NCBI GenBank assembly: GCA_008632985.1
Contig: QPGO01000042.1
Coordinates: 434,001-498,000 of the forward strand
Source of the DNA: Psammoneis japonica
Taxonomy: Eukaryota
Direction: 5' to 3'
Length of the DNA stretch: 64,000 nucleotides
The translations under genes were made by a program, and so were the position numbers. The notes under the pieces were generated by a model. The model saw only the letters and a program-made list of their open reading frames with translations. It ran no database searches and had not been told where the DNA came from. Numbering within the stretch: position 1 is the first letter of the stretch; each line of letters opens with the position of its first letter. Shown in pieces: positions 1 to 59,438 of this stretch.

Positions 1-128
1 CCGTAAAATGACACAAAACATCGAAAAAATCACGTAGAAATCTACGTGCGCGACATGCGACGTGATTCAAAAAACTGTCGATGTCACAGTTCAGCAGTGC
101 GAGGTCCCACCTGGACCTGGAACACGTC
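1..128 (+). mobile_element. Right end of a TIR (MITE-like) element of the GACGGGTTCCAG family
   Basis: Ends GTCCCACCTGGACCTGGAACACGTC, homologous to the right end of the 269-665 copy. It keeps TA sites (CACGTAGAAATCTACGTG) that read CACGCAGAAATGTGCGTG in that copy. Confidence 0.6.
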
Positions 129-4750: not shown

Positions 4751-4833
4751 ACGTGACTTGATGTCCAGCAATGAAGAAACAAGATGGGGCACAGCAATTG
4801 CCCCATGAAGAATGTTGGTGCACTCTTCGACAC

Positions 4834-11208: not shown

Positions 11209-11233
11209 ATCTGCAATACTTTTGCAGTACACG

Positions 11234-13345
11234 CAACATGTTCCAGCTGAGTGCCAATCACATTGAAAATGTGGCGCTGTGAATGGAGTCAACAACAGGA
11301 CCAGTGGCCCTTGGATCACATTGTTGCACCATTGACTCCAATCAAGTGACAGCCACAGCAATGCATCAAAACCAAAAGAATGCAACCCACTCAATCTTCT
11401 TCTCAAGAGGTTTGAAATCCTTTTGAAAAGTTCCTTGGACAAATGAGTGTGGGAAGAACCAGTGGATCTCACCGTGAAAAATCTGACACAATTCTACAAT
11501 GCGTGAGAACCTTCTCCCACCACAGTCTTTGGTGGCATCCATTTGAAAGAAATTTTTCCAATTGTGAAAGATTGGAGTTTTAAAAATGAAGTTGCTCAGC
11601 ATGGGTTGCTCTGAGACTCATTGTCAAAGGAAAAAGGGTCAAGTTTGACCTTGTCCAACTCTCAGAAGCTCAGCAAAAGGTTCGCACACATGGTGAGCCC
11701 TTTGCTCAACATTCAGCATTTTGTCACCTTTGTAAAAAAAAATTGAACAGACATTCACACAACCAGAAAAGCCACTTTGAAGGCAGACAACCAAAAGTCC
11801 TTCACCGCTTGGCTTGAAACAAACCATCAAGACTTCCACACATGATGGTGTGCACCCAACTGCAAAGAAAATGGAGGCAACTCAGGTGATCACAACACTG
11901 AAAAAAAAAAAAAACAAAGAACATTGCAACATCTTGTCTCAACACACATCGCTGATGTCAAGACATGCAGCCTCAATGATCTCACACACTTCAAGCCAAA
12001 TCCACCTCAACGAAGGTCAAGTGCGGAACAAAAATCTCCAAAAACATGCAGTGCATCATGTCAAAAACTGCACCACCATCATGCCTGAAATTTGGCACTC
12101 ACATCACAACGGAAAAAGAGCTTCTGTCCATGGTGGAAACACTTGGGAAATTCCGGAATGCACTGTTTGGCCAACACTTTGACGTGTGATCTCCTGCACA
12201 CTTCAAGCCAAATGCACCTCAATGAAGGTCAAGTGCAGAACAAAAGTCTCCAAGAACATGGAGTGCATCTCAGTTTGGTTTTGCCGTGTTTTTGAACAAA
12301 AATCCAGGGGATTGCCACCTTTTACCCTGTTTTTCTGTGGAAAGGGTGAATTCCCAGGGAGTTGCCACAAGCTGCCCTTCATCACATGTGCGCTCAATGC
12401 ACGAATAAAAAACAACACATTGGCAATTCCCCGTGCTTCCCCTCTCATACATTTCTGCATGTTCTGCATGCCAGCACGTGCGGAGCCACACATCAGATGC
12501 ACAAATCAACAACCGAACAACGCAGCAAAAATGGGCAACACGCCATGGAGCATTTGCACCCCATTTGTGACGGCTTTTGTCAAACAATGATGACACTGGT
12601 CAATCCAGTGAACAACATTGTGATCGACAGCACAAAATGTAAAATGAGCAGAAGCTTGGCCGATTGCGCTCAGAAAACTGGTGTGTTGATGGATCGTTGC
12701 ACTCACTCTTTTGTTGTGAGGCCACAAATGTGAGCCACGCGGCATCCATGGTGAAGTCCAAGGCAAAAGCAGAACCATGCATGGCTGATAAAAACATGAT
12801 GGATTGAATGGTCTTGCTCAATTTTCCAATTGACACATCTTGTGCGCAGAATGAAGCAAATCATTTAGAGTCACTTTGACGTTGTGCAGCTGCAAATGCA
12901 AACCATGAGGCACCTGGAGTGAAGGCTGAGGAAAAAGCAGAGCCTCACAAGGCTGCTAAAAAAATGGTGGATTGAGTGGTCATGCTCATTCTTTCCTTTG
13001 ACCTGTCTTGTGTGCAGAACACAGTGTGCCATGTGTTCCTTCTTGACAGAATTCTAAGAAGAATTAAAGGTGCATGTCACTCTCTGGCTGAAACATGTGT
13101 GACCATGTACAAAAAGCCTGTCAGTTTGAAGAAAGCGGTAAATGGTTTAGTCGGTAACCGGTTATAAGAGGACCTAGGTTCGATTCCTGGGTATCGCAAT
13201 TTTTCAGGTTGATGGGTCGGATTTAATCGAGTTGGTCAATCTTGTTTAAATCCTGTCATGGTGCGAGGACCGTTGATGATTTGAACCTAGGTGTGTGTGC
13301 TCCTTCAAGATGACTCTAAAACTGAGGAGAGGCTGCGGTGAGACA
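11234..13345 (+). repeat. 2.1-kb direct repeat, copy 2
   Basis: Matches 4834-6945. Confidence 0.95.
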
Positions 13346-13759
13346 GACCGACGATGCACATAGTGCTCTTATTAGGGATGCCGAGGCCGGAATGGCCGCC
13401 CAATTATCAGTTCGCCGGGGAGGTCATGACATGTGCAGAAAAATGTGGCCCAGGTAGAAGGGGAGCTGTGAGAAGTATCATTGTCCAAAGAAAGGAACGT
13501 CAGACAGCTTCGTGACGTCAGACAGCTTCGTGACATATGGGGAGTGACAGAATTCTAAGAAGAATTAAAGGTGTATGTCACTCTCTGGCTGAAACATGTG
13601 TGACTATGTACAAAAAGCCTGTCAGTTTGAAGAAAGCGGTAAATGGTTTAGTCGGTAACCGGTTATAAGAGGACCTAGGTTCGATTCCTGGGTATCGCAA
13701 TTTTTCAGGTTGATGGGTCGGATTTAATCGAGTTGGTCAATCTTGTTTAAATCCTGTCA
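13044..13759 (+). mobile_element. TRIM (non-autonomous miniature LTR retrotransposon), 716 bp
   Basis: 215-bp LTRs at 13044-13258 and 13545-13759 (TGACAG..CTGTCA, 2 mismatches). PBS TGGTGCGAGGACCG at 13259, PPT GGGGAG at 13539-13544, 286-bp non-coding interior with an 18-bp tandem repeat at 13498-13533. Confidence 0.92.
13135..13204 (+). ncRNA. tRNA-like Pol III cassette inside the TRIM LTR (also 6735-6804 and 13636-13705)
   Basis: A-box TGGTTTAGTCGG (13143-13154), B-box GGTTCGATTCC (13177-13187) inside T-arm CTAGG-TTCGATT-CCTGG, acceptor stem GCGGTA/TATCGC plus discriminator A, then a T5 terminator. No canonical anticodon arm. Confidence 0.7.
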
Positions 13760-13761
13760 AA

Positions 13762-14037
13762 TGATAGAAATTGAAGGCAAATGGCAAGAATTCAAACAAC
13801 AACTCCTTACTGCTGTCTAAATAGCAGATGAGTCTCCGCTCAGAGACCGTCACAGGAGCCGAAGGACATGTAAGTCGGTATAATCGGGCTACTGTCATTA
13901 TTCTTGTGAGCCTTGTGGCTCGAAAGCAAACTGCATCGCGCGTGAACGCGCGGAACTGAAGCACACAAAACTGTGCACGGCAAACCAAACAGCACTCGAT
14001 GCTTCGCGCGCACCTGAATCCTGCTCAAATCCTGTCA
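13762..14037 (-). repeat. Copia 3' LTR (276 bp)
   Basis: Aligns with 20595-20853 with 17 substitutions and one 17-bp indel. Confidence 0.95.
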
Positions 14038-14059
14038 CTCCCCAGTTTGCTTGAGGAGC

Positions 14060-17000
14060 CACAGAAACAGATTTGACTTCGGATGGAATGAAGTTCCAGA
14101 ACATGAGGGGGCGGAGAAGGTCCCAGATTTGGGAGCAATTCAGTGCTTGCTGAGAATGTCAGCAGGGTTGCGGGAGCCTTCGATGAAGTGGAGCTCAAGG
14201 TGACCAGAGGCAATTGCCTCACGCACACGGTGGAACGACAGTGCGGTGTGTCGCTTGCGCAACTTGGAGTGCGGGATGGTGGCGCTGTCTGCAGCCGACT
14301 TGTTGTCACCGAACATGCAACCAACATTGCGAGCCGGGACGCCAAGGCAGTGCAGGGTGATGCGCAGGTCGACAATCTGCTCAACACAAGTCCTTGCGGC
14401 AACAAATTCAGACCCGTGGGTCACAGTCTCCACGGTGGCTTGTTTCTCAGAGAACCAATCAGCCGGGAATTTGTTGAGGAAGTGGAGCATTCCCATGACA
14501 GAGCGTCCGGTGAGCATGCAATGGCGCAAGTTTGCATCGATGCAGTGGGTGGCAGCAGCGAACTTGCCAAGGGGCGGCAGAGCGTCCTTCGGGATCATCT
14601 CTTCTGCTTCGCCGTGCACGGAACGCATCCACTCACAGGCCGGAGCAGGGAGATCCGAGTGGCCGGGCTCTTCCGTGCGAACGCGGAGAGCGCCGTGTCG
14701 CATCTTGGAGAGGTGCCCACAGACGCGCTTGGCACGATCCAAGTGGCCTTGACGGGGCGCAGCTCGGAAGCCAGAGAGTGACATGACGGCCGTGGCAATG
14801 TCAACTCGACCAAGGGACACTGCCCATTGGAGTGAACCAACAAGAGACTGGAGCTTGTGGATGCCATCGGGTCCCAGCAGTTCGGAAGTGTCCAGCTCGG
14901 GGTGGCCACCCTTCTCTAGAGGTGACAGGGCGTTGGTGGTGGGTTTCTCCCCAAACAGTCGGGCACAGCTGTCGACCATGCGCTCGATGTGCTTGCGCGG
15001 AGACAGGCACAAGGTTCCGTCGGGTTCCCGGGAAAAGTCGCAACCCAGATGGAACTCAATGGGTCCCGCACCCTTGAGCTTGAACTTGTGCTTTTCCGTG
15101 AGGGTGTCGACGAAAGATTGAGGGTCCTTCATGGCAATGGCGAGGTCACCCACACAAACGGCAATGCACTCACAGTGGTCGCCGTTCCTGCGCATCCAAA
15201 TGTCGGGTTCGGCGCGGCAGGGGAAGAAGCCTTCAGCTCGCAGGCAGTCGGCGAAGCGCTCGTGCCAGCGGAGACCGGAGCTGCGCAGTCCATGCAGTGC
15301 CTTGTGGATGACAAGGATGTGTCCTTCGAGTTTGCCGAACTTGGGTCCAGCTGCAATGTAAAGCTTCTCCTTGGTGGTGGCTTCAAGGCAGGCATTGCCA
15401 ATGTCGGTGGCCCATGTCTCCAACTCGTTGAGTTCGGCCAGGAAAATCATCAGCCGAAGGCCACGGAGGGAGACTGCTCCGGAGCAGACACTGTCGACAG
15501 GCACGTCCGTGAGGTGCCCGTCGGCTGCGAGTCATGCCTTGTGGCGACCGTCGTGTTTCATGTCGCACACCAGGTGCACTCGGATCTTCTTGTGCCCCGC
15601 AGGAGGAGTGGAAGACTTGAAGGGCCCGCAGTCATGGAAGACTTCGCACTCGTCGAGTTGGTCCATCTCGAGATCAGTTGCGTCTCCCCACTTGCGGTTG
15701 CCGTTGCGTTCGTCCAGTGACATGGCGTGTTTGCAGTTCCGGGGAACTTCGCATCCATGCTTGCAGCGAGGTGCAGTGCGGAAGGAGCGAAGCTTGGCTT
15801 GGTTGGCCATGCGAAACAGCTTCTTTTGGCGCCTCGCGATGGTGCGGAACCGCTTCCAGCCATCCGTGTCGAGGAGTCCGTTCTCTCGTGCATGGATGGC
15901 ACAGGTGACGGGGTCGTCCTTGGCGATGATGGCAAGAGGCTCGGACGTGATCTCCCCACTTTCCCGTTCAAGCATGATGTTGTAGCTGGAGCCTTTCCAG
16001 GTTGGGTCGTGAGGCTTCAGAGGTCCTTCGTGTGACACGATGCGTCGAAATTTCCAAACAGCAGTGTCTTCGTCTTCTTGCTCAATGTGATTCATGATGT
16101 CATTGTGGGCAAGGACTTCCTCGCATTCATCATTGTTGACAGAGCAGACGAACTCAGTGAGCTTGGGATTGCCGCTCACTTTCCATTCGTGGTCTTCGAC
16201 GGCCTTGACGATGCGAGCTCTGTGGCGTTGTCCGTCCTCTTGTGGCTGCATGAGGAAGGTGCGTCCAATGATGTCTTGCGGATCGAAAACTGGCATCTTG
16301 GGTGTCCTGATCTCCCCATCAGGAGAGTCGACGGGGTTGTCGTCATGGCGAGATTTGATGATGGGTTCAGGTGGCTCCCCATCAGGAGGATCAAGACGCA
16401 GGTTTCGGACGGCAGGATCGGGGGCAGCGGAGCGGACGTTGGACCGGCAGAGGATCTTCTGATTCTGGTCAGATAGAATCTTGAAGGTCATCTGGTGGCC
16501 GACGTGCTCAGCAATGCCAACGAAGCGTCCACGCAACTCACGGGATTCGGACGGCCAATCGGAGTCATCGAGGTGGAAGCACACGGGTTCCCACCAGTGA
16601 AAGCGAAGCAATGGGCTGATGTCCGGGGTGGAGCCAGTGAGAGTCTCAAGGGGCGTGCGCCAGTGGAGACGTGGGGACGCTGCATGGTTGAGTGTGAAGC
16701 ACACGTGCATGAGCGCCAGCAGCCATGCATGGGCGGGCGAACCAAAACGATCCATGACAGTGTTCGCCATGTGCTTCACGGTCTGGTGTCGACGCTCGGC
16801 AAAGTTTTGGTGTTGCTGGTGAGGCTCACTTTGCCAGCTAGAGATGAAGAGGGCGCGTGGGATCCCGAGCACTTTGTTGCTGATCTCAACTTGAGCACGG
16901 TCGCTAATGAGTTTGGATGGGGCACCACGTTCACGGATCTGATCCTCGAGTGTGTTGACAAACTCTTTGTCCGTCTTGGTGCCGTAGACGTCAGTGACGG

Positions 17001-19653
17001 TAGACTCGGTGCCAACAAACAGCTGGGGACTGGTGCAACCAGAGTCGACGGCCGGGGTGTCGGCACAAACGGTGTCAGTGGCGATGGGCTCGTTGCGGCG
17101 GTGCACATCAAGGGCGGGGTTGGGTGATTTGCAGGCCTTGCGAAGGTGTGCACCGGCGGGCATGCGGGCGCACTGCATGGTGCAGTCAAAAGTACGACGG
17201 ACCGTGTCGGCAGGTGGGAAGCCAAAGCAAGGCCGAAGAGACTCGAAGGGGGGGTCCTTGGGCTGCACAGTGCGCGCCGGAGGTGGAACATCATCGCCCT
17301 GGGGGCCAATCGCATGCAGATGACACTCGTGGAACACGTCGTCGTTCGGAATGAGGTGATCATCGAGGGCGGACGCGTGATCGGCAGACAAGGAAGCGGA
17401 CATGATGGTCTCGTTGACAACGACACGATGACGGCAGTTGCCGCATTCGTCAAACAGGTTGGCAGTGGGATCGTCCTGCAGGTCAGAGATCGCGTCGCAC
17501 CACTGGTCGTCGTCAGTGACAGAGTGATCAAGGACGGAAGGGTCCCATGTGTCATCACCGGTGAGGATGACATGGGGCAGGGTGTCCCATTCGGCGTCAG
17601 TGCAAGGTCGCATGGCAACACAAGGCAGGCCAGCCTTGATGTCAATGGGGATGACATAGCCATCAGGAGTGGCAACATGTTGCAAGCCGTTGGGCACCTT
17701 GACAGAGCGATCGTTGACATCCTGTTTGCACCATTCGAGCTGGCCGCAGGAATGGATGGTCTTGCCCTTGCCCGTGCATGCGCGCTGATGGAGCATGGCG
17801 ATGACGGGACCACGCTGGGTCTCAATGACGGCACCAGCGGTGACAATGGGGATGTCCACCAATTGATGATCGTCAATGCCCTGAACGTCGACTTGGCGAG
17901 AGGTGCGTGCAATGACGCGAACGTCGTCGCCAGCAATGCCGCCGTTGGCCCCACGATCGACTAGAGCGCCAGTGCGTGTGGAGCGATGAGCAGAAGCAGA
18001 GCAAATGACATTGTGGTTGTCAACGCGGCGGTGAGTGCGACCGTCAAGTTCTGTGTCATCTGCAGAAGCTGGCGGGGTAGAGGAAGCGGCGGATGGCCCC
18101 GGTCGACTGGCATTGGGGGCTTGGTTAGGAGACAACAGACGTTGCAGATCACCGGGTGGCAGTGGCTTGCGCTTGGTGAGGTGCGCCAGGATGGGATCAT
18201 CTGAAGTGGCGTCCACATGTGGAGCGGAGTCACCAGAGTCAGCAGGAGTCGTGTTGGACAAGTTGACATCACCGTCACTCCCAAGGCGTTGGTCGTGAAG
18301 GTTGGCCGCAACAGACTCATGGCAGTTGCTGGCTCGCGGGTTGCGGGGAGGTGGACGAGAATGCTCAAGGATGATCGCCTTGGAGGAATCGGGCAACGAA
18401 TCCCAGAGCCGTTGGTGGTCGGGAGGGAGACGTCTCCATTGGACACCGGTGAGGCTGGGACCACGGGTGCAGGCAGCATTGGCTTGAAGGACGTCAACGT
18501 CGCTGTCAATGTCGCAGAACACATCGTCGGACGGTTCCTCGGAGCAGACGTCGTGTGCACATGTGGCGCGTCGGGGAGCTCGAGGTGTCGTCTTGGGTTG
18601 AAACGTGCTGTCGTGCTGAGCTGCGGCGGAGAGGAGCAAGCCACAGCATTGATCGCATGTGAGGCTCTTGCCACTCTGCGCACGATGCTGATCAGCTTGG
18701 TTCTTGACAGCACGGAGTTCCTCGACAGGGTGCACGGCATTCTCGAGCATGACGCGCTTCTGTCCTTCAGAGAAGTGGTCACTGGCCGGGATGAGTGCCT
18801 CGTGCTTGCGCAACTGATCTTGCCAATGAAGGATGAACCCGTGGGTCGGACCTTTCCAAGTGCCATCACCAAGACGCGCGGTGGTGAGGTGCGTGAGCAG
18901 GGTGGAGGACTCGACAGATGCGCGGGTGGAGGCAAGCGCGTGCTCAGACAAGGAGCGGCAGACGGTCTGTGCGTCAGAAGACCCCACATTTTCGCGAATG
19001 AGAGCCTTGCCCTTGTCGGTGAGAAGGATGCGTTCGAAGACGGCGAACATGTGCTTTTGCTGTTCAGCAAAGAGCAGTTTGTCTTCGGGGCTGGTCGGTT
19101 CATACGACGAGTCTAGAATGCACTCGATGTCTTGGGCACGGGCTTGTGCCACAAGTGAGGTGTGCCAAGTGTGCCACTGCTTGTCGGATTTGAGAGCCGT
19201 GAAAGCGGTGGGATCACGCTTGATGCCTCGCTTGAAGTCCCACACCGGGTCGCGTGCCTTGGTCGGGTTGGTGACATGTGGAGGTGCAAGGGGTGAGCTG
19301 CCGATGGACACAGAAGACATGCAGTCGGGGCTGAGGCGGTGGGCAAGGAACTCGTCATGCGTGAACAAAGAGGAGTCATTGGCAACGTCAAGACCTTTGT
19401 GTGCTTTGACAATGTACAGACTGACTGATGCTGCTAACATGTTCTTGTAACCACGGGGCAAAGGGATTGCATTGGTGCCGTTGTCGCACTCAAGCGAGTC
19501 TGTTTGGGACGGCATGAACGTGAACAGTTCCTGACATGAGTCCATGCCGTCTTGGGCCAAAGCCAAATGAAGAGGACTCCCAGCACCTTGGGCAAGCACG
19601 GTTCCAACCACGTGCTCGAAACCATCGGTTTGTTGCTGACGAGTGAGAACCAT
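14060..19653 (-). pseudogene. Copia gag-pol polyprotein pseudogene
   Basis: PR LVDRGANGG; IN ..ISDRAQVE..QNFAERR; RT HLVCDMKHDGRHKA*, KALHGLRSSG, CVGD (for YVDD); RNase H DANL..TGRS..GSEFVAAR..FGDN..NPADILSKH. TGA (from CGA) at ~15532 and a frameshift at ~14140. Confidence 0.93.
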
Positions 19654-20576
19654 GGCAGACAAAGGTGGTGTCAGGACAATCAATTCTGGTTGGGAAGCGA
19701 AGGTAGACTCGAAACTTGGGTGAGAATAGACTTGACTTGAAATGGACTTGACTTGAAATCTTGAACCATCTTAAAATCAGAAGTCGCCGGGCTTTGTCAC
19801 CCCGTTCGTTGTCAAGTGCTAAACTTCCTGTCCGGTCCGCAGAGTTGTGCCGGCACGTCCGAACCCGCAGCTGGTGGCGCTTTGGGTTGCTTGCGAGCGG
19901 AGCAGCGGGTTGCAAACCCCTGCAGGTAAGCTGACCAGAGGTGGACAAGACCCCCGAACCGTTCTCATTTTATGTCGGTTGGATTTCCCGATCAGGCTGG
20001 CCAGTTGACGCAGGCATCAGGCGCTGTGGACGAACGAACAAACGCGGGAAAGCACCCTCGCCCCAACGTAGGCTGCAATCACGGCTGCCTGCTCTCACAG
20101 TCATCCTCGTGGACCTAGCAGAACTGTGGAGCACCAGCAGTCCGGGGTAGATCAGGTGCAATGGACTCGGTGTGCTTGTAGAGTGGTGGCAAAACCGCAG
20201 TCCGAAGAGTGGATAAAGGTTCTTGGCCGTGAAGATATGTATATATATATATATGTCTTCAGCGACTAAGATCCTTGAATATGTAGGGTTCTTGACCGTT
20301 AACCGAGGAATAGGTATATCAAGGGATGTTGATCAAGGATAGACTTGGATATGACCGTTGAACATAAGTCTTCAGCGATCAAAGGTAGCACAATCAATCC
20401 AGATATCCAGCGGTAAGGAGACTTGACGGTGACGTTAACTTCCTGCCGATGCCCTGGTATTGAATGCGCGTAGACTTGCCGATGTATGTAGAATATATAC
20501 GGAGGTCCACGTAGAATTGAAATAGCGTCGTTGGTAAATCAACGACGACGATGGCGGTTGCTCAATGGGTTGACAA

Positions 20577-20594
20577 TGAGCAAGACTGTTAATC
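20577..20594 (-). promoter_or_regulatory. Putative primer-binding site complementary to an internal tRNA-Asn anticodon arm
   Basis: Element strand reads GATTAACAGTCTTGCTCA directly after the 5' LTR, with no TGG. Its complement contains GACTGTTAATC, a tRNA-Asn(GUU) anticodon arm sequence. Confidence 0.5.
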
Positions 20595-20853
20595 TGATAG
20601 AAATTGAAGGCAAATGGCAAGAATTCAAACAACAACTCCTTGCTGCTGTCTAAATGGCAGATGAGTCTCCACTCAGAGACCGTCACAGGAGCCGAAGGAC
20701 GTGCAAGTCGGTGTGATCGGGCTGCTGTCATTGTTCTTGTGAGCCTTGTGGCTCGAAAGCAAACTACATCACTAAAGCACACAAAACTGTGCACGGTAAA
20801 CTAAACAGCGCGCGATGCTTCGCGCGCACCTAAATCCTGTTCAAATCCTGTCA
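20595..20853 (-). repeat. Copia 5' LTR (259 bp)
   Basis: TGATAG..TGTCA on the + strand, followed by the TSD CTTCT. Confidence 0.95.
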
Positions 20854-21254
20854 CTTCTTGTGTGGTGTGGACACAAATGCAAACCACAATGGCGCTGGAG
20901 CAAAGGACAAGGCAAAAATAGAGCCTCACACAAGCAACATTGACGTGGCTGATTTAAAGGCAATGTTTCTTCTTTCCTTGCTCTGCCACAAGGGGGCAAT
21001 TCATGGCTTGGGATAAAAGCACACCCGCCTGACTGCAATTGCCACAGATTGCCGCACTCCATTTGCTTTTTGTTCCCCTCCCCTGAGCCCTTTCAGGCTT
21101 TCCTTCCTGAAACATTACCCTCATTTCCTGGGATTCCATCAAAAGGGCAAGGTGACTCCCCCTCACCCTGGCCATTTTGGGGAATCCCCAAATGGGCAAA
21201 ACCAAGCTGAGGAGTGCATCGTGTCAAAAACTGCACCACCATCATGCCTGAAAT

Positions 21255-21460
21255 TTGGCGTTCACGTCACAACGGAAAAAGAGCTGCTGTCCATGGTGGA
21301 AACACTTGGGAAATTCCGGAATGCACTGTTTGGCCAACACATTGACATGTGCATGGTTCACAAGACACAACAAACACAGAGTCGTGGGTGGGCAAATTGA
21401 TGCAGCACACAACGAGGGCATGGTGAACATTGTCGCAGAAGCATTCAGCCAACTTGCTGT
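21255..21460 (+). pseudogene. Decayed Ty3/gypsy RNase H fragment (further copies near 5700, 12100 and inverted near 22080-22160 and 23430-23510)
   Basis: HVTTEKELLSMVETLGKFRNALFGQ resembles gypsy YTTTEKELLSIVETLKEFRNILFG; GMVNIVAEAFSQL resembles GxxNxVADALSRL. Confidence 0.75.
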
Positions 21461-21787
21461 GAAGAAAATTGAGCCTTTTGAAATCCTGCAACAATGACCT
21501 GCCTTTAAAACAAGACAATGACATTTCCTCCAAATTGCCAGATGCAACACATCTTGCCAACACTTTTCGTGGAGGTGAGCAAGATCAAAAAGTGCTCATG
21601 TCACAAGGACAAAATTGTCTTGTCTGAAGATGCTTTGAAAAAATTGGTGACAGATTGGCACAAAATGCGTGCCCACTTCACACTGGAAAAAAAGACAGTC
21701 TCGCAACACCCGCGCAGTTGCAGTGTAAAATGTGCAAGGCAAGACACAAACAAACAATGTTGCTCTCAAAAGACACTTGGAAATTGG

Positions 21788-23764
21788 AGCATCTTCAGAC
21801 AAGACAATTTTGTCCTTGTGACATGAGCACTTTTTGATCTTGCTCGCCTCCACGAAAAGTGTTGGCAAGATGTGTTGCATCTGGCAATTTGGAGAAAATG
21901 TCATTGTCTTGTTTTAAAGGCAGGTCATTGTTGCAGGATTTCAAAAGGCTCAATTTTCTTCACAGCAAGTTGGCTGAATGCTTCTGCGACAATGTTCGCC
22001 ATGCCCCAGTTGTGTGCTGCATCAATTTGCCCACCCATGACTCTGTTTGTTGTGTCTTGTGAACCACGCACATGTCAATGTGTTGGCCAAACAGTGCGTT
22101 CCAGAATTTCCCAAGTGTTTCCACCATGGACAGCAGCTCTTTTTCCATTGTGACGTGAACGCCAAATTTCAGGCATGATGGTGGTGCAGTTTTTGACACG
22201 ATGCACTCCTCAGTTTGGTTTTGCCCATTTGGGGATTCCCCAAAATGGCCAGGGTGAGGGGGAGTTGCCTTCCCCTTTTGATGGAGTCCCAGGAAATGAG
22301 GGCAATGTTTCAGGAAGGAAAGCCTGAAAGGGCTCAGGGGAGGGGAACAAAAAGCAAATGGAGTGCGGCAATCTGTGGCAATTGCAGTTGGGCGGGTGTG
22401 CTTTTATCCCAAGCCATGAATTGCCCCCTTGTGGCAGAGCAAGGAAAGAAGAAACATTGCCTTTAAATCAGCCACGTTGATGTTGCTTGTGCGAGGCTCC
22501 ATTTTTGCCTTGTCCTTTGCTCCAGTGCCATTGTGATTTGCATTTGTGTCCACGCCACACAAGAAGGAACACATGGCACACTGTGTTCTGCACACAAGAC
22601 AGGTCAAAGGAAAGAAGGAGCATGACCACTCAATCCGCCATTTTTTTAGCAGCCTTGTGAGGTTCCACTTTTTCCTTGGCCTTCATTCTAGATGCCTCAT
22701 GGTTTGCATTTGCTGCTGCACGACATCAAAGTGATTCCAAATGACTTGCTTCATTCTGCACACAAGATGTGTCAATTGGAAAAATGAGCAAGACCATTCA
22801 ATCCATCATGTTTTTATCAGCCATGCACGGTTCTGCTTTTGCCTTGGACTTTACCATGGACGCCGCATGGCTCACATTCGTGACGGCACGAAAAAAAAGA
22901 GTGAGTGCAACGATCCATCAACACACCAGTTTTCTGAACGCAATCTGTCAAGCTTCTGCTCATTTTACATTTTGTGCTGTTGATCACAATGTTGTTCACT
23001 GGATTGACCAGTGTCATCATTGTTTGACAAAAGCCATCACAAATGAGACACGAGCGCTCCATGGCGTGTTGCCCATTTTTGTTGAGTTGTTCGGTTGTTG
23101 ATTTGCGCATCTGATGTGTGGTTCCGTGCGTGCTGGCATGCAGAACACGTAGAAATGTGTGAGAGGGGAAGCACGGGGAATTGCCAATGCATTGTTTTTA
23201 TTCGTGTGTTGAGCACACATGTGACGAAGGGCAGTTTGTGGCAACTCCCTGGGAATTCACCCTTTCCACAGACAAACAGGGTAAAACGTGGCAATCCCGT
23301 GGATTTTTGTTCAAAAACATGGCAAAACCAAACTGAGATGCACTCCATGTTCTTGGAGACTTTTGTTCTGCACTTGACCTTCATTGAGGTGGATTTGGCT
23401 TGAAGTGTGCAGGAGATCACATGTCAATGTGTTGGCCAAACAGTGCATTCCGGAATTTCCCAAGTGTTTCCACCATGGACAGAAGCTCTTTTTCCGTTGT
23501 GACGTGAATGCCAAATTTCAGGCATGATGGTGGTGCAGTTTTTGACATGATGCACTCCATGTTTTTGGAGATTTTTGTTCTGCACTTGACCTTCATTGAG
23601 GTGGATTTGGCTTGAAGTGTGCAGGAGATCATTGAGACTGCATGTCTTGACATCAGCGATGTGTGTTGAGACAAGATGTTGCAATGTTCTTTGTTTTTTT
23701 TTTTTTTTCAGCGTTGTGATCACCTGAGTTGCCTCCATTTTCTTTGCAGTTGGGTGCACACCAT
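21788..23764 (-). repeat. Right arm of a ~2-kb inverted duplication (left arm = 11845-13043 plus 20854-21634)
   Basis: Reverse-complement match with a ~153-bp spacer (21635-21787). Carries the empty LTR insertion site (single AGAAG at 22562-22566). Confidence 0.9.
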
Positions 23765-26937: not shown

Positions 26938-27548
26938 TAGCAAGCGGAAAATGACACGTTGTGGGTAAGCCGGGCTAGAGGCCTACAATGCAAGTAACCC
27001 TAGGATATATGTGTTTGATAGGAGTAGGTAGTACGTACATGCTGTAAAAGTCCTCTGCAAAATAGCATATTTTCTCTCTCTTTTCATACAACCTAGACCC
27101 ACATGCAAAGTAGCAGTCCGATTTTCTCATTCCGACGCTACACACGACACGTGCGGTGCAATAAAACAGCAATGTAGCGCCTCTACTCTAGTCTAGAGTA
27201 GTAGCTAGCCCTCTACATACTCTAGGACGCTACTCTAGATAGTAGACCCTCTAGCTAGCTAGCTCTAGAGGGCCCCTACCGATAGTCTACACTCGATCAG
27301 GCGATGATAAAGGAAGGTCGCGTCGATCGACTGTCGACGACGACTCCTCCTCTCGGATGAAGGAGGGACGAGATTCTTCTGTGGCCGCACGTACGCGCGT
27401 AGGTACTGTACGTACTGTGCAACATATGAATATATACATAATATTAGGAGAGCATTCAGAATATTACGTATGTGAATACAGTATATATTCCGCCCAAGCA
27501 CTCGCAACCTGGCATTCAACGCACTGAGCACCGTGCGTTGCGTTGACC

Positions 27549-33746: not shown

Positions 33747-34179
33747 TATTTGATAGCACGACAGCTAGTGGAAATTTGTTGCCTCTGTCGCGCCAACGAC
33801 CATCAAGCCTTGCACCAATCTTGTCTCTCAGATCACAGTGTCGTGTAATAAAAAGGAATGTTAGTGGTGTTCTTGCTGTGATCTGTGATGATGTCTCATG
33901 TCTCATGTCTCGCAAGTCTCGCTGAAAAAATGCGGAGAACAAAACTTCGCCATTTTTGTCTTTTCTCCGGGCTGGCGGACGGACGAAGCAAATTGATCGC
34001 TTGCGTGCGTGCGTGCGTGCATTGCTTTCGAGCGATTTCGAGCGACTTGCTTTCGAGTTACAGCTACATAGCGCCAGCGCAGTGTGATGATGTTGGGTGT
34101 GTGTTTGTATCCGATCCCCGGCGCTCTTCCCACGAACGGTGCTTTCTTTACCACAAACGTGATCCTGTTGAAAACGTTA

Positions 34180-37100
34180 GCGGGAACTGTGCCACGCAAG
34201 CCAGCATGATTGTTTCTTTCTCTTTTTCTCCAGCAGGCATTTTCAACAAGAAGCATCTGTGTGCTCTGGTGTGGCGAGAAGAAGCAATTTCTTGAGACCA
34301 CAGTCGACACCAGCTGCACGTGGAACACAAGGGGTGTGCCCCCCAAGGCCTGCCAACCAGCAGCTCTTGAGTCTGTCCCCCTCTGCACGCAAGTGCCCAA
34401 AACACTCGCCTTTTTGCTTGGCCATCACAGCACTCCTCTCAGCCAGTCTTTTTGTTTGCAGCCAAGCCACAACAATGCAGTTCTTCATCATTCTTGTTGT
34501 GTCCACACAACCGTGCTGTGGCACCAATTGAGAAGGAGTGGCTCTGGCCAAAAGCAGGCCTCTGCCACCAACCAACTGCACTCAGCACTGTGGAGCCAGC
34601 TGTGTGCTGTTCAAAGCAGTGGCAGCTCTCTTGCAGAGTGGGGGGGAGATGATGCAAGGCCTGGCCTGTTGATCAGCTCTCAAGTCTGTCCACCTCCTGC
34701 AGACAGATCATGCCCAATGCTTGCTCTCTTCCTTGACCATCTCAGTGCTGCTTGAAGCAGCCATGACCCTTGTGGTTCTTGCAGCCAACGCAGTTGCTCC
34801 TTCTTGTTTTGTTGCACCAGCAACAATGACAAACAGGTGGCTGAAAGGACCCCAGCTGGTCCTCTGCTGACCAGCTCAATGGCTGGCAAACAAAGTCCAG
34901 ACTGCCTCAAGCCATGCTGGCAGGAAGTCTCTGCTGTGCACTTCATGCAACGCTTTTCCCCAAGCCCTGCCTGGCACTGGGTTGTGGCCAAAAAACATTT
35001 TTTGATCATGTGCTGCACAACAGCAACTTGCACTTCTGTGTGCCCTCTTGGACAACATTGCCTCACATGCTCTGTTTTCTGAGAAGGTGTCAAGCTCTCT
35101 GCACTGGCCATTCTCAGTGCTCAGTGACAGCTTCTGAGTTGGTTGTGTCTTGCAATGTCCAAGGAATTGTCAAGCATGGGTGCTCAAAAACAGCTGCATC
35201 AGATGCTTCACAGTTGGCTTTTCAGGCTGTGACAGGCCATGCTGTCCACAAGCTTGTGTCAAGAGGCAGCAGGAGCAAATCTTGCCACACTCAGCTGGCG
35301 CCAGATTGGCAAGTGCTGTTCAGCCTTGGATGCTTGGGATGATGCAGTTGAGTGATGAGGTTGTGCGCTGCAAGTCACACACAAATGATGCCATGAGGAG
35401 AGAGCACATTGAGAGGTTGCAGTCCATGGGGTGGTGTTTGTGTGAGTGGATTGCTTGAAACTGGTTGGACGTTGTGTCATTGCAGCTGCCACATGTTGCT
35501 GCTTAGTCTGCAGCAAAAGCACTGTGTCACACTGGTTGAGTTTGGGCACCTTGCTTGTGATTTGGTCATTTGCTGAAACACAAGAGAGTTTGTCATTGGA
35601 CAGGGAGAGAAAGAGAGAGAGAGAGTTGTTTGTTTGAGAGAGAGCTCATTCAAGAGAGTGCACTCTCAAGAGGAACAAAACTCTGCCCAGATGTGTTGCA
35701 CTTGTCAATTTTTGACATGTGCCAGTCAACATGCAGAGCTGGAATGGCAATGGCATTGGGTCTGTGTCACATTGAAGTTAGTCTGTGACATTCCTGTTGC
35801 ATCACAACTCTTTGTGTTAGATGCCCTGTGCTCTGCATTTTGCCAACCTGCCATGGCAGCCAAACTTTTCATGCAGCTGACCACACTGTTGTCACTTTTT
35901 ACTTCACAATCATCACTTTTGCTGTGCCCTTTTCAGAGGTGCATCACAAACAAATGTGCAGCTTGTCAAGCCTCATGTTTGGCATGCAAACACAAACCCA
36001 TGTGCAGGATTGTGTGCATGTGCCAACTCTGGTGTGTTGCACCACAAGGCAATCTCAAAGACCTGTCAAAACAGTGTGTGGCAACATGAGAAATGATGGT
36101 GACACAACAGCAGGCCATGATTTGAGACATGATCTTCCAGCTTGATGTTGGCTGCAGCATCATTTCTCCCATGTGCATCAGTGCCCCAAGATTGTTGCTT
36201 GTGTGTAAAACCAGCTTGTTCAGCTTTGGTCTTTGTTGTTTTGCTGTGGTTGCTGTTTGACCAGCTGGTTCAAGAGAAGTGTTGCTGCCACCAATGGTGC
36301 AGCCATGGTGTGGATTTCTTGCCAAGAGACCACTCAAAAGAGATCACTTTGATGAGCTGGCACAGCTCTCTCAGACAAAATGGTGTGAGCTTCTCTTTTT
36401 CATTTGCAGCTGACACATCCTCTGTTTTTGGCATGGTTTTGCACTCCTCAGCCCAGCAGCAAGTCAAGACTTGCAAGGCTCCAACTGCTTCACCAGCTCC
36501 AGCAGCGCAAATGCTTCAAAGCCACCACCAACTCCAGTGGCACATGGGCTCTGTTGGCCACTGCCAGCACTGGCAGAAAAGGCTCCAACTGCTGCCTCTT
36601 GCACCAGCAGCAAAGCTCTGACCACCACTGCTCTGCCAGCACAAAGGCACTCACTGCCACCTGCACCAGCAGCACAAAAGCTCTGGCTGATGCCAGCCAA
36701 CACCAGCAGCACACAAATGTTCCAAGTGCTGCCAGTGTGCTGGCAGCAAAAAAGCTCTCTCCAACTGCTGTGAGTGCCAGTGGCACAAAACCTCCAACTG
36801 CTGCCAGCACCATCAACAAAAGGGTTCTCCAACCACCACCAGCACCTGCAGCACAAAGGCTCCAATCACCACCAGCGCCAGTGGCACAAATCCTCCAACA
36901 AGCAAAAATGCCAGAGGGGACAAGAACTCTTGGGGGGAAACTGTGTGGCAGGGTCTGTCTGCACAATGGCTTCTGCTGGTGTGCTGGCAGCAGTGTGGTG
37001 ACAGATGAGTGCACAAAATGTGTGCAGGAACCATTGCCCTTGCAGGCATGCTCTTCCTCTGTGATTCTCTTCATGCGGCAGGGCCTGTGGTGCATGCCAG

Positions 37101-40100
37101 GGGTGACAACCAACTTGATTGACCCGCCCATGCTGCATGTCTGCTGCTGCCAAAAAATCACCAACTCTGGGGAGGAACCTGGAAAAGCAACCCTGGCACT
37201 CTCATCTGAACCTGGCACCACAGGTGCCCCATGTGTCACTGACTTGGCTCAAGTTCAAAATTTCCAACAACTTTGCCTGGTGGTTTTTGTCAACTTAAAA
37301 ATTTTGAGCAGAATTTTTTCAGAATTTTTTCAGAATTCCTCACTGCAAACTGCACATCATGGCAAATCATCTGATGGAGCGTGCAGAAGTTTGTTGCACA
37401 ATCTTGAGAACAGCCCTTGCAAAGTCAAATGTCCAAGTTTTTTGCAGTGCTTGCATTTTCACTTTGACCCAATGAATGAAATGACATGTTGGTGTTTGTT
37501 TGTGAAGGTCACAAAAATTGACCTCTGACTTTGTTCTCAATTTGTTTGGCCCATTGCCTGGGTGCCCATGATGACAAGACCACCACTTTGTGTCAATCAG
37601 CTGTCATTTGGTGAACATGGCAGTGATGAAAAAACAGAAGCTGAAGACACCATGCATTTGACAAAACAGAAAATGTTTTGTGTGCAACAACAAACAATTG
37701 AGAAAGATTTTGTCATGGTGAGACATGTTTGACACAATGCAGCAATGTCAACTTGTTGCTGGTGGCTGGCACAGGAGGATGGCCAAGGGGCAATGAGGCC
37801 TTGGAGACTGAACCACCAGCGCATGCCCAGAGTTGTCAGCAACATTTGACAAAGTTCATTGCACACTCTGTTGACATGCAGTGGCAACAAAGGTGCATGC
37901 TCCAAGAAAGAGATTTGGCACAAGCTGACTCAACAGTCTGCTGTTGTGTTTTTCCTGAAAGTGACAACAGTCTTTTGTTTGCATTGTTGTGTGCTTTGCC
38001 CCCACGACACCTGTGATCTGACATTCACCATCTGTGTGCGTCAAGTGACCTTGTGATGGTGCAAGCAGTTTTGACAGGAGGGTTGAGCTCCTGCATTTGA
38101 CAGATGTCCTTTGAGAGATTGACAAATGAGCTTCACATTCATTGCTTTTGGACTTGAAAAAAGGCCTGCCACACTGTTCCATGGGTTCAGACGCAATTTG
38201 AGCTGCAGGTTGGAGAGAAGCCAGCTCCCTGTTGTTGCCCTCAGCAATGCACACGGGTGTGCCATTCACAGCCTTCTCATGGAAACATCAACAAAAAGAA
38301 AGCTCCTGCCTTTGTCTTTGCTCAAGCATGCAGCAGCACAGCATGAGCAAGCTGAGCAGCACTGCCACAGCACTGTTTTGACAGCATTGCTCCTTGGGAG
38401 AAGATTGCTCATTTTCATTTGTCATTCTCAGGTCTTCAGCCACAAGCACATCTCTCACTCTTGAGAAGAAAAAACTGGGCTCTTGCAGCAGCTGCTGGCT
38501 GCCATGCACCTGCTCTTGCAGTGCAAAGGATTCCCAAGTCATGTTTGCAATGGATTAGATCATGGTGCAGTGTGGTGCACAATTGGTGGAACAGCTCACA
38601 ATGGGCAAAGTGCAGTGAGGAACAGAGTTTGGCACACATGCATGCCAGAACAATGTCGTGCACCCCCATTGCTTTCAAGCCAGCTCACACTGGTCAGCAT
38701 CACACACAATGACCCATCTTTCCTGCCACAGTCATTTCCAACAGAGCAAAATCAAGAGGTGTGGGGCTTGCTCCACTCTTCTCCATTTTGTGGCACCTCT
38801 TGCATCTCTTCCATTTTCAACCACCTGACTGCAATGCAATCCAGTCATCATTGGGGCCAAGAACCGCTGCTTTCCTCCAATCCATTTTCTTGATTTTAAG
38901 GAGGAAAAACAGTGGGAGAGCACAATTGGGGATGTGGCACTTTGGGCTGGAGCTCCTTCAAGCATTCCTGCAGCTGGTGCACAAACCCAATGGTTGAAAG
39001 CTGTGGTGCTGGTCACAACTGGCTCTTGACTCAAGCTGGCAGGCAGCAGGCAAAAGTGTGGAAGATGTTGGTGATGAAAGAAGTGGCTGAAAAACTGTGT
39101 TCTGCAGAGAGTGTGGCACGAGCAGAAGTTGGGAATGGCACCTTTTCAGCAAAGGTTTTACAGAGAATGGCAGATGTTTTGCAACTGCGCATGCAAGACA
39201 TGGTGGCAAAACATGCCACCATTGATGGTGGTGCTGTGGAAGAGGAGACAAGCACACATCCAGTTTGATGAAAGGTTGGCAGTTGGAGGGTGATGCTCAC
39301 AACTGGAGCAATGTGGTGCATGTTTGCAATGTCAAGCTGCAGGCACATTGATTGAATGGCTGCAAGAAAAGTGTCTGGGATGTTTGTCCAGCAGACAAGG
39401 AAGAATCTTGCTGCAGCTGTGGCAACCACATGCAACTGCTTGTTTTGTCACAGTGCAAAGCTGCTTGTTGTTGTCTCAAGGAAGGCTGCAGCAGTTGCAC
39501 TGAGAGCAAACACCTCCAGTCTGACTGTGGCATTGGGAGTGTGCAAAGTCTGCCAGAGAGCTGCTGTGGATTCCCAAGTTGTGCAATGCAGATGTGCCAC
39601 ATCATGTGTGCAGGATGGATGCAAGCCTTCTGCTGCTGCAGGGTCAAGAAGGAAATTTTCAACTGCAGCAGCCTGGCCAGAAAATTTCAGAGATGGTGAC
39701 AACAGAGCCAATGATGGCCACCAGCATGGCAAAAACTGTGGCACAAACTGGCAATGCTGCCATGACAAGAATGATCTGCTTGAAAATGAAAAAAAAAATG
39801 GAGAGCAGTTTCTTGGCTGTTGGGAGTGGCTTTCAGCTCATCAAACAAGGCTGTCATGACAAAGCAGAGCTTGGTGACCTTTGCAGCCAAGTTGGCCACT
39901 CTGCATCATCAAGTCAAGCAACAGCCCCTTGTGCAGAACAAATGTTGTTTTTGATTGTGCTTTTCTGTCAACACAGGTGCTGGTCCCAACCCCAAAGCAA
40001 TTGCTGTGGACAACAACAGCTTGTGTGTGGCTTTCCAAAAAAAGCACCAAGAGACAAAAGCAGCTGAAAGAAAGCAAAGTGACTGACAATGTTGTTTTTG

Positions 40101-42940
40101 AACTCATGGACAAACACTGTCATTGAGCAGAGAGGAAACAAACCACAAATGCAGGGTGGATGAAGGCTCAGAACTGCAGCTCATTGAGTGCAAGATTCAC
40201 TGGTTTCCTGGTCATCTTCAACGAGTGCAGCAGGTGTCTGGCTTTGCAAAGATTCAAGTTGCTTGGAGTGAGGATGCAAAGAATTTTTTGCTGAGAGTCA
40301 TGGCAACCAACTGCCATCTTCTTGCTGTCCATGATTGTCAAGCAGCCAATGCTTTCAAAAACATTTGGGGCTGCCTGTCAGCTCCTGCCACCTCAAATGA
40401 CATTGTGTGTCAATGGGATGAAGCAGCTCAACATTTCTTTTGTGCAGCACCAGCCAAATTGTGCCAAACACATGAATGCCATCATTGCATGTTTTGTTTG
40501 ACAACAGCTCCTGAAACTGCTTGCAAATCTTCTTGAGGAGCAGACACACTTGTTGCTCTCCATTCCTTGCTCTTTCTTCAACATCAACTTGGGAAACAAG
40601 AAGTGGTGCTCTGCAAAGCTCGCCCATTGTTTTCTTCTCAAGGAGAGCAAGAGAGAGCAAGAGAGAGCTGCAGCAAGAGCCAAGAGAAAAGCAGCATGTT
40701 GTGCCATCCCTCTTGACTTTGGAAAAGCCAGAAAGTTGCCCACCTTTTACTCTGTCAGTGAAATCATGCCATTTGACTGTGCCCAAAACAACCACAAAAA
40801 TTGCACCAACACAGAAACCAACCTGACATGGCCAAACACTTTTCAAGCCACCTTTGCTCAACATTGCAAAATGATGCTGCTGGGTCATGTGCACAGAAGC
40901 AACCAAAGTTGACTCAGCTGCTGCCACAAAGAAAAACAAAAGTGCAACAGCTTGCTCATCTGCCCCAAGTGCTTCTCTTGCAGCTCTTCTTGTTTTTGGC
41001 ACATGGTCTTTGCCGTGACCAAGCCACTCCAAGCTGCTTTGCAAACAGCGCACCTCAGAAACTGTGCCACACAAACAAGCTTTGGAGTGGTGTGGAGTCC
41101 CCCCTGGGTGCCTGCTCAAAAGTCTTCTTTGAACCTGTGTCTCTGGAACTTCAGAAGGCCATGTGCCAAAGAAAGATGCTTCAGCAACAACAAAGGCTTG
41201 CAACTGCAAAATTAAAGTGCAAAATCTAGCTCTCAGATGACAACTCCATTCCCTGTGGAACAAGGAAAGGATTCAAAGCTCTGGCCCATTGTGAGCCTTT
41301 TGCCTTGCCCCCCTTTCCCCCAACCTGCCAAAAATGGGTTGAAGCACTCAAGTCTTCCTGTTGCCAGGGAGCAGAGCAACAATCAAGTCCCTTGGCTCCA
41401 CCCAGCTGCTGCTTGCAAACATCAAAAAAAGCCTTCTGTGCTCAGATGGCTTGTCAAACAAAACTTGGCACATGCTCCTCATCTGTCTGACACTGGAGAT
41501 GCAACATGACTGCACACCTTCCTGCCCCTGCTCTTGTCACAACAACATTTTTTCCACCAGAGCACTCAGCAGATGCAGCCTCACAACATTGCAGAGCCTG
41601 ACAATTCTGCCATTCTCAGAAGCCGAGGCTGGATGTTCTCTGCCATGTTCTGTTCTTGTTGTTGACCCTTTTGCTCTTGCTGATGACAAGCAGTGCTTTT
41701 GTCAATGACCCACCTGTGTGTTGCACATTTGCAAACAAGACAGCAAGGCCAGCTCCCCACCTTGATGTCTTTAAAGGCTGCAATGATGTCCACTCAGATG
41801 TCTGAGCCTGTTTTTTCTTCTTGTCTTTGTCCTTCCCCCCACATCTGCTTGCATTGCATGGTGCTTGCTGCACTGCACACACCACATGCTCTTTTGCATT
41901 TTCCACACTGCAAAATGGCCAGATGTTGTCTGCACATTCCAGCATTGCTCGGTGTTTGAGGCATCCAGCTTTTCAATTTTATCCTCTTGCGCCAGATGGC
42001 CAGCCTTCTTGGCCCCTTCAGCTTGACTCCACCTGCATTTCTTCTTCAGTGCCACTGCCTCAGCAACTTTGCACTTTCCTCAACATTTCTTCTCACAATG
42101 GCAGCTCTGGCATCACACCACCCGCCAAAAGAGCTGGCACAAATGCACCATTGCACCCCAGACTTTTCCAAAGCACACACAGCTCCTGCTGTTGTTCCCC
42201 AAGACCATGCAAAACCACCTGCCAATGTCTCACCTGAATTGTTGCCAAAGAAAAGAAAGGAAATGTGGGTTGCACACTCCTTGTCATGCTTGAGTTCACC
42301 AAGAAATGCAAAACAATGGAGCTGGGCCACCGTCGTCACCGCCGTTTCCATTTCACTGCCACTGCTGCTGCCATCATGGCTCATGATGACAGCCATGTGC
42401 ACATGAAACAACTGCAAAGAAAACCTCAGTCTTCCTGGCAATGGCATGCTGTTTGTCAATCTGGAGCAACATCAGCCACTGGGTTTGAACCCAGCAGAAG
42501 AGCTTCTCTCTTTTTCCTGTCGAGAGAAAACAACAAAAATGGCAAGTTTTGTTCTGGCAGCCACAACCACCAGCCTCACAGTTGCATCATTTGCAAGTGA
42601 GCTTCTATCCACCAGCCAATGTCACTGGACATTTCAATCAAACACTTTTTCCCACCTCCACAGCACATGTGAGGCGGGCCAGCTGATGATGTCCTCAAGG
42701 ACACCGGCGAGCACCGATGTGGTGCCCCCCCCCCCCCAATGTCATGCACGGCACATGGAATTCAGTTGAAGATGATCTGTGTGCACCAATGAGTGGCACT
42801 GCAGCAATTTTTGACACATTCGAAAAAATCATGCTGTGTGTCACATGTTGCGCCGCATGGTTGGGGAGAAGTGAGAAGTGGTTTGATGCAATGCAGCCAA
42901 GCACAGTGCAACAAGACTGTGGCACAGAAAGTGGCACCGT
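34180..42940. other. 8.7-kb degenerate block almost devoid of TA and strongly depleted of CG
   Basis: Only about 15 TA seen by eye; saturated with TG/CA; no recognisable intact gene. Confidence 0.85.
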
Positions 42941-59430: not shown

Positions 59431-59438
59431 TCAACTGC

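Follow-up and report, generated by a model that had tools for sequence, protein, structure and literature searches.

In a 64,000-nucleotide (nt) stretch of the genome of the diatom Psammoneis japonica (contig QPGO01000042.1, positions 434,001 to 498,000; below called the window) we found a Ty1/copia retrotransposon with long terminal repeats (LTRs) that has lost most of its TpA dinucleotides (TA) to TG or CA. The loss affected both strands, is near saturation in pol, is spread block-wise along the element and, within the window, is restricted to repeats. We consider it very likely that it reflects a repeat-restricted, TpA-erasing process working on chromosomal copies, because copy-specific losses are found on both strands, the same signature is carried by repeats that are not retroelements, and there is an experimental precedent. 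That the blocks were made in place on the integrated copy is the reading we lean towards, at slightly under even chances. A first-pass annotation had claimed chromosomal mutation after integration; the copy-specific losses on both strands speak for the chromosomal process, whereas mutation at this very locus cannot be proven by a single LTR pair, as recombined LTRs would fit it too.

Reciprocal TA loss in the two LTRs

Alignment of the 3' LTR (LTR-A) and the 5' LTR (LTR-B) by MAFFT gave 259 columns, in which we re-counted the 17 substitutions listed in the first-pass annotation, namely 12 of TA against TG or CA, three CpG-type and two others. By class these are nine TA/TG, three TA/CA, three CA/CG, one other transition and one transversion. 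The alignment further revealed a 17-bp indel absent from that annotation, present in LTR-A at 13939-13955 and missing from LTR-B. Probably LTR-B lost the stretch; loose ends of contigs (see below) show it in other copies of the family. The 17 bp are a hairpin-like CGCGCG..CGCGCG repeat.

TA sites attract most of the change. The 259 columns include 28 TA positions, and these receive 12 of the 16 transitions (binomial p = 3e-9); against the stricter background of the 53 columns where a transition interconverts TA and TG/CA the p-value is 4e-6. The reciprocal pattern that had been described proved exact: LTR-A carries TA at the first seven differing sites (13809-13900) and LTR-B at the last five (equivalent to 13933-14016), a segregation with a chance of 2/792 (p = 0.0025). 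When all TA sites are counted as kept/lost, LTR-A has 9/0 in one part and 0/5 in the other (Fisher p = 0.0005) and LTR-B 2/7 and 5/0 (p = 0.021), in agreement with the earlier view that the loss is block-wise and not uniform. In the orientation of the element the lost parts are the U5 (unique 5') side of the 5' LTR and the U3 (unique 3') side of the 3' LTR. Six of the seven losses in the first block of LTR-B went to TG on the plus strand, as first noted, and strand coordination within the LTR pair is not significant (plus strand 6:1 and 3:2 by block).

The LTRs diverge at 17/259 columns (6.6%) overall, at 5/259 (1.9%) when TA sites are left out, and at 0.8% when TA and CpG sites are both left out. 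The warning that LTR dating overestimates age is thereby substantiated (6.6% in all against 1.9% without TA sites), and for this element the date is inflated under any reading of how the blocks arose.

Blocks and edges along the element

In LTR-A nine TA are kept up to 13899, none occurs from 13900 to 14916, and the next stands at 14917. Between 14000 and 19000 we count 13 TA, where base composition predicts 210. Throughout the TA-free tract (Table 1) the observed/expected ratio (O/E) of TA is 0.00-0.13 while that of CpG is 0.69-1.06; as TA is gone with CpG still at 0.7-1.06, TA loss is the faster process.

Patches of about 100 bp had been proposed. This holds in part: LTR-B has a lost block of its own, at most 175 bp in length, while in LTR-A the lost block consists of the final ~105 bp of a TA-free tract that is ~5.2 kb long. 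Both LTR switch points lie in one 33-bp interval (columns 161-194), a third sharp edge lies at the junction of LTR and leader (20590|20642), and TA-rich segments alternate with TA-poor ones along the element, at least five in all.

We considered whether the mutated part corresponds to the sense transcript (R-U5...U3-R, R being the repeated region of the LTR), through a transcription-coupled process or one limited by mother-daughter homology. This fits both LTRs and fails on the TA-normal leader. Insertion of the leader at a later time was ruled out, as CAAGTCT motifs continue into 19700-19760.

Table 1. Features of the window discussed in the text, with TA content where informative (positions are those of the window; O/E, observed/expected; PBS, primer-binding site; PPT, polypurine tract; TRIM, terminal-repeat retrotransposon in miniature; TSD, target-site duplication)
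Feature	Position	Strand	Remarks
Old repeat hosting the composite insertion	11229..13043		TA-free state starts at most 6 bp from the repeat edge; last TA at 11228
Left TSD copy, CTTCT	13039..13043		5 bp; flanks the composite
TRIM-like non-autonomous LTR element	13044..13759	+	716 bp; LTRs 13044-13258 and 13545-13759; PBS-like TGG... after the first LTR; GGGGAG purine run ahead of the second
Filler AA	13760..13761		2 bp; separates the two U5 ends (TRIM-like element and Copia, tail to tail)
Copia 3' LTR (LTR-A)	13762..14037	-	all 9 TA kept in 13762-13899 (U5 side); all 5 TA lost in 13933-14016 (U3 side, adjoining the PPT)
TA-free tract	13900..19100		spans U3 side of LTR-A, PPT, pol and most of gag; ~5.2 kb; sharp edge 13899|13933
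gag-pol reading frame	14140..19653	-	one TGA at 15534; RVT_2 in the last 454 aa
Graded zone	19100..20200		TA O/E climbs from ~0.2 to ~0.5 (200-bp bins)
Leader adjoining the 5' LTR	20200..20594	-	TA-normal; (TA)9 run 20236-20253; TG+CA not raised
Copia 5' LTR (LTR-B)	20595..20853	-	7 TA lost in 20642-20733 (U5 side), 20598 and 20651 kept; all 5 TA kept in 20765-20831 (U3 side); lacks 17 bp of LTR-A
Right TSD copy, CTTCT	20854..20858		matches the left copy
Empty-site inverted paralogue	22490..22640	-	site uninterrupted, without the insertion
Largest TA-free and CpG-free repeat tract	34179..42939		TA O/E 0-0.11; CpG O/E 0-0.17 through 34501-42500, 0.41 in the last 500-bp bin; TG+CA 1.6-2.06

Direction of change and the strands affected

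To the frame with the reverse transcriptase a collection of 5.8 billion proteins holds 2749 relatives at E<=0.001; the best 120 of these 2749 all carry PF07727, the highest identity is 67%, and one diatom is found among the named sources. We took as conserved those columns that are identical in at least 80% of the best 120. All 17 conserved Tyr columns are altered in the Copia, to Cys in nine cases, His in seven and Leu in one. The changes at conserved columns (n = 48) comprise 23-24 of TA>TG or TA>CA, eight other A/T>G/C transitions and none of G/C>A/T outside CpG.

The 1862-aa relative P0259 aligns with the Copia frame end to end (1791 columns, 58% identity) and gives the same picture: three of its 62 Tyr are kept and 50 have become Cys (30), His (17) or Arg (3), while as controls in the same comparison Phe is kept at 35 of 62 positions and Trp at 25 of 29. 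TA is thus the ancestral state in the Copia, lost to TG or CA. Along pol the sense-strand losses consist of 13-14 TA>TG and 10 TA>CA, and as these are interleaved both strands have been affected. Three Tyr codons on the minus strand (14526, 17784 and 18030) now read CGC (Arg), with both TA bases changed; the second change would have lain outside a TpA context.

Other copies of the family

Copies elsewhere were followed in contigs of four sequencing runs, all of one sample in one study; it should be noted that such contigs drop rare variants. The family is of very high copy number, with 13,638 contig pieces and a summed depth of 40,000-190,000, against ~35-90 for single-copy pieces. The comparison listed 40 of 400 variant places; of the 12 differing TA sites of the LTRs, the family state covers 13958, and it also covers the shared site 13864. 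Other family copies have TA where the window reads TG or CA at eight of the 40 places in the list; among the eight are the Tyr codon at 14991 and the LTR site 13958, where TA is carried by 95% of the depth. In another copy, loose contig ends reveal that one LTR TA pair took the alternative route of loss. One contig at single-copy depth is LTR-B-like up to 20744 and joined there to sequence that is LTR-A-like from 13912, which makes an LTR that is TA-poor throughout.

At 13864 A makes up 99.9% of the family depth aligned to LTR-A, yet both LTRs read G. This shared rare G hints, weakly given the loss of rare variants from contigs, at a common origin of the two LTRs. Two scans of metagenome contigs for exact LTR and PPT-LTR patterns returned no loci.

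TA loss in repeats and genes of the window

The window as a whole is bimodal. Genes have a TA O/E of 0.4-0.9 (mostly 0.5-0.7) with CpG near 1, and the repeat tracts 1-6500, 11229-13043, 20854-25500, 34179-42939 and 58694-61460 have a TA O/E of 0-0.1 and TG+CA of 1.6-2.06; the older repeat tracts are also CpG-poor (0-0.4). Of 63 scored 1-kb bins, 25 fall below a TA O/E of 0.15, 34 are at or above 0.35 and four are intermediate, and TA O/E correlates with TG+CA at r = -0.87. The cut-offs for TpA depletion used in a preprint on Bigelowiella natans (bioRxiv 10.64898/2026.01.13.699255) are passed by 23 of the 63. Tract edges are sharp and, where this could be checked, lie within a few bp of the repeat edges. 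In the TA-erased repeats GC has risen from ~0.48 to 0.57-0.62.

The tract at 34179-42939 is included in Table 1 for context, as an end state of the same TA-erasing process; two of its frames (36389-37528 and 34845-35342) gave no match in Pfam. Pairs of older non-LTR repeats differ by an ordinary spectrum, with 16 of 314 differences TA-type and most at CpG and other sites; almost no TA is left in them to lose. When old repeat copies are compared, 18 of 19 dinucleotides with a double transition are CA against TG. These double mismatches were considered as parallel TA loss after duplication and set aside, since CpG decay on the two strands yields the same.

Host genes in the 25-64 kb part are compact and single-frame, and include a histone deacetylase, an AAA ATPase, MMS19 and ATG22. 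The histone deacetylase is 88% identical to a cluster containing Minutocellus and Chaetoceros sequences, which marks the host as a diatom. Two 500-bp bins between gene-sized open frames (27001-27500 and 31001-31500) have TA O/E of 1.54 and 1.41 and may be TA-rich intergenic or promoter regions. At 606-1500 lies a satellite of 8-bp period; runs of N (720-1018, 1300-1495 and 2043-2623), which may be assembly gaps or masking, break the sequence here.

The Copia and its insertion

Judged from its sequence the element is a CoDi-like diatom Ty1/copia retrotransposon on the minus strand, the orientation being given by the strand of its open reading frames and a minus-strand purine run ahead of the 3' LTR. 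As read from the sequence, both LTRs end in TG..CA. The long minus-strand frames, 15532-19683 and 14140-15504, together make one gag-pol, interrupted by a lone in-frame stop in 1837 codons, a TGA at 15534. Three relatives have Arg at this position and the change is CpG-type. The final 454 aa of gag-pol, which form a frame of their own, match the Copia-type reverse transcriptase family RVT_2 (PF07727, E=7e-16). The 1383-aa frame matched no Pfam family, as is to be expected because most of its Tyr have been lost. A PBS matching a tRNA was not identified in the Copia.

The 5-bp flanks of the Copia by itself differ (TCAAA and CTTCT), and a perfect CTTCT duplication encloses 13044-20853 only when the Copia and the adjoining TRIM-like element are taken as a composite. 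It looks like two complementary DNAs (cDNAs) joined ahead of a single integration, to judge from these junctions. Both outer ends of the composite are U3 ends beginning TGACAG, common to the two elements.

The TRIM-like element is TA-normal (O/E ~0.6), and its LTRs, the only other LTR pair in the window, differ at two of 215 columns, both times by TA against CA. Within these LTRs (13130-13200 and 13631-13701) lies a tRNA-like stretch with a B-box-like GGTTCGATTCC motif, in which ARAGORN called no tRNA. A 2.1-kb duplication (4834-6945 and 11234-13345, spaced by exactly 6400 bp) is 99.6% identical, with eight mismatches, and takes in the old repeat together with the first LTR of the TRIM-like element and 87 bp of its interior. 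The segment bracketed by it is TA-normal with host-like frames, among them a tetratricopeptide repeat (TPR) protein at 8923-11493. Directly to the right of the Copia the old TA-free repeat forms a large imperfect palindrome (20849-22571) with arms of ~790 bp and 32 mismatches.

How the blocks may have arisen

In the reading we lean towards, the palindromic TpA of the integrated copy would have been turned into TpG or CpA by a transposon-restricted process, which amounts to T>C changes on either of the two strands. Beginning in the U3 side of the 3' LTR, one tract would extend across pol and gag and then fade over ~1 kb, and a second block of at most 175 bp would cover the U5 side of the 5' LTR. 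Each LTR would then lie half within and half outside a block, which would produce the reciprocal pattern. With both LTR edges inside the 33-bp interval and a short block of roughly nucleosome length, the positions of the edges may be dictated by sequence-directed chromatin, or else by a landmark in the LTR, for instance U3|R. As agent our leading guess, by analogy with what is proposed for B. natans, would be an adenine deaminase acting on DNA at TpA. No gene for an ADAT2-like deaminase was noticed in Pfam scans of the 64-kb window, and no dedicated genome search was made. Mutation in place is supported by the shared rare G at 13864 and by the general rule that the LTRs of an element are identical at insertion.

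Several observations weigh against mutation in place. The leader at 20200-20594 is unmutated (35 TA against 32.5 expected) between two lost blocks, which neither a transcript-limited nor a domain-wide process in place explains. The TRIM-like neighbour within the same TSD was likewise spared: of its 28 TA site-copies two are lost, whereas the Copia LTRs have lost 12 of 28 (p = 0.004). Non-TA differences number 0/215 in its LTR pair against 5/259 plus an indel in the Copia (p = 0.067). In every older hypermutated repeat of the window TA is absent right up to the edges, and not in blocks smaller than an element. Finally the assembly support is partial, as contigs of the best run hold 54% of the sampled 31-mers of 13000-21000.

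Recombination during reverse transcription, between hypermutated and unmutated family RNAs in one particle, would give LTRs that were never identical; we judge this unlikely, though it deserves serious weight. Each minus-strand strong-stop DNA would jump to the other RNA, yielding one chimera with a TA-poor U3 and rich R/U5 and another with a rich U3 and poor R/U5. Plus-strand transfer would then be intermolecular, so that the 5' and 3' LTRs stem from different chimeras, and a copy-choice switch near the start of gag would supply the TA-normal leader. The TA losses would still be chromosomal hypermutation, but at the donor locus. All three sharp edges are accounted for as likely strand-transfer landmarks, U3|R twice in the 33-bp TA-free interval (candidate R) and U5|PBS once at the leader junction, a coincidence that recombination predicts and that counts against mutation in place. 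So are the untouched leader and TRIM-like element, and the five non-TA differences and 17-bp indel against none in the TRIM-like pair. The insertion itself is multi-template, with two elements tail to tail, a 2-bp filler, one TSD and an empty-site paralogue. TA-keeping and TA-losing variants coexist in a family of very high copy number, and the contig with the TA-poor LTR is what would be expected of a donor, and equally of a daughter. Against this, intermolecular plus-strand transfer, which recombination requires, is uncommon in retroviruses, and the rare G at 13864 common to both LTRs lies in a block that would derive from two donors. In the portions of the reports available to us, 21 of 75 new ONSEN insertions have hybrid LTRs, mostly joined in R (PMC5668417), LTRs of different ancestry occur in three of 249 rice RIREX elements with a TSD (bioRxiv 10.1101/452573), and complex insertions through template switching are described (PMC1950507); the rice figure suggests ~1% of elements. 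The cases from ONSEN and rice are also documented exceptions to the identity of LTRs at insertion, which was treated as established in the first-pass annotation. The high copy number, the coexisting TA states and the mosaic of at least five segments would also suit ectopic gene conversion after integration, with chromosomal copies or cDNA pasting TA-poor or TA-rich segments into a uniform element. We think this improbable, since at least two separate tracts are needed whose ends fall at LTR landmarks by chance (~0.13 x 0.1 by our estimate), and the shared rare G stands only 5-8 bp from the differing sites 13868 and 13871.

The chance that the assembler created the mosaic, by passing from one copy to another where the copies share sequence, for example in the 32 bp at the core of the LTR that are free of variants, seems slimmer still. 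Both LTR switch points do lie in the longest variant-free stretch of the LTR, the best run holds 54% of the sampled 31-mers, and at many listed places the letter of the window is without contig depth; such missing words are, however, expected for a unique hypermutated copy when contigs drop rare variants. The outer junctions are coherent, with a matching 5-bp TSD and the empty-site paralogue, and at least four copy switches with the frame restored would be needed. Editing before integration, by ADAR-like A-to-I change of the genomic RNA or APOBEC-like deamination of single-stranded cDNA, is highly improbable. The rise from a leader without edits to saturation in the 3' part recalls the gradients that APOBEC3 editing forms along human immunodeficiency virus (HIV), and the 5' U/T preference matches ADAR (a Discussion point in the part available to us of bioRxiv 10.64898/2026.01.13.699255). 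Nevertheless, A>G and T>C occur on the sense strand in roughly equal numbers and intermixed, and the non-retroelement repeats of the window bear the same signature. RNA editing before reverse transcription would moreover leave the LTRs identical, where we see them differ at 12 TA sites, so its exclusion in the first-pass annotation is upheld. Models of cDNA editing with APOBEC/HIV-type timing were rejected, as they predict changes on one strand and, in the 3' LTR, mutation of the wrong half, the reverse of what is seen. Hardly any credence is left for the reverse polarity, in which a process like repeat-induced point mutation (RIP), the classic repeat-targeted mutator, which produces TpA, made TA from CA/TG in the TA-holding halves. 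A RIP-like gain of TA is refuted by the conserved Tyr codons, which were lost and not gained, by repeats that are TA-free and not TA-rich (O/E 0-0.1), and by the TA that family copies hold at 13958.

Comparison with known systems

The closest precedent is Bigelowiella natans. In the part of the preprint available to us (bioRxiv 10.64898/2026.01.13.699255, 2026), mutation-accumulation lines acquired 231 de novo mutations in two integrated regions of viral DNA, 230 of them A>G or T>C; all GC-biased mutations fall on TpA, at a rate ~1000x background and in some lines only. The preprint also describes genomic clusters in which TpA is low and CpA+TpG high, finds reverse-transcriptase and DDE domains enriched among TpA-depleted genes, and proposes, without showing, an ADAT2-like DNA deaminase. 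Like that process, the one seen here makes A/T>G/C transitions at TpA, to TpG or CpA by strand, and is confined to selfish DNA with host genes normal, here in one 64-kb window. B. natans is a chlorarachniophyte (Rhizaria), whereas the present host is a diatom (Stramenopila). Targets here are LTR retrotransposons and unclassified repeats with a TA O/E of 0-0.1, against 0.45 given in the available part of the preprint for its nucleocytoplasmic large DNA virus (NCLDV) region. Older tracts here lose CpG as well, and blocks with sharp edges occur within an element. Action on chromosomal DNA was seen de novo in B. natans and is deduced from sequence here. Our literature search for TpA-only hypermutation in diatoms found no report, with most subscription journals and the bioRxiv supplements outside its coverage.

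With RIP of ascomycete fungi the process shares restriction to repeats, near-saturating transitions, sharp tract edges and the killing of transposon genes. RIP makes C>T changes at CpA and so creates TpA, while the process here destroys TpA, raises GC and cannot create stops; the TpA excess that marks RIP was looked for in the repeats of the window, where TA O/E is 0-0.1. RIP depends on duplication, and the B. natans target is single-copy.

To our knowledge ADAR proteins are confined to animals. ADAR hyperediting and APOBEC3 are, like the present case, deaminase-type hypermutation of retroelements with a dinucleotide preference (5' U for ADAR), but they act on RNA or single-stranded cDNA, on one strand and before integration, where we see both strands affected equally and non-retroelement repeats included. 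The hybrid LTRs of ONSEN and rice RIREX, as far as the accessible portions describe them, resemble the Copia in joining U3 of one member to R/U5 of another, in TSD-flanked LTRs of different ancestry and in complex insertions under one TSD. Here the parents would differ by hypermutation state and the LTRs would be reciprocal chimeras, a configuration not described in those portions of the ONSEN and RIREX accounts.

Implications

T>C and A>G changes cannot make a stop from a sense codon, so dead hypermutated elements keep long open frames, and gene callers will predict Cys- and His-rich pseudo-proteins from them. A TA O/E near 0 together with TG+CA near 2 would offer a simple sequence marker for foreign DNA, and LTR-divergence dating would be unreliable in such genomes.

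If the process is as we describe it, TpA-specific hypermutation known from one chlorarachniophyte also works in diatoms, on retrotransposons and to saturation, and a newly found genome defence would be widened to a second eukaryotic lineage, one that includes major marine primary producers. Further we speculate, as a doubtful extension, that diatoms might carry a RIP-like defence of opposite polarity which would strip integrated transposons of their TpA, reaching saturation and affecting both strands, in blocks edged at U3|R and U5|PBS. It would be guided in cis by the nucleic-acid intermediates of the element (genomic RNA, strong-stop DNA) or by LTR-positioned nucleosomes, and together with that of Bigelowiella it might represent an ancient defence of the Stramenopila-Alveolata-Rhizaria (SAR) group. 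If it was made in place, the block structure of the Copia would be the first clue to how the mutator is aimed.

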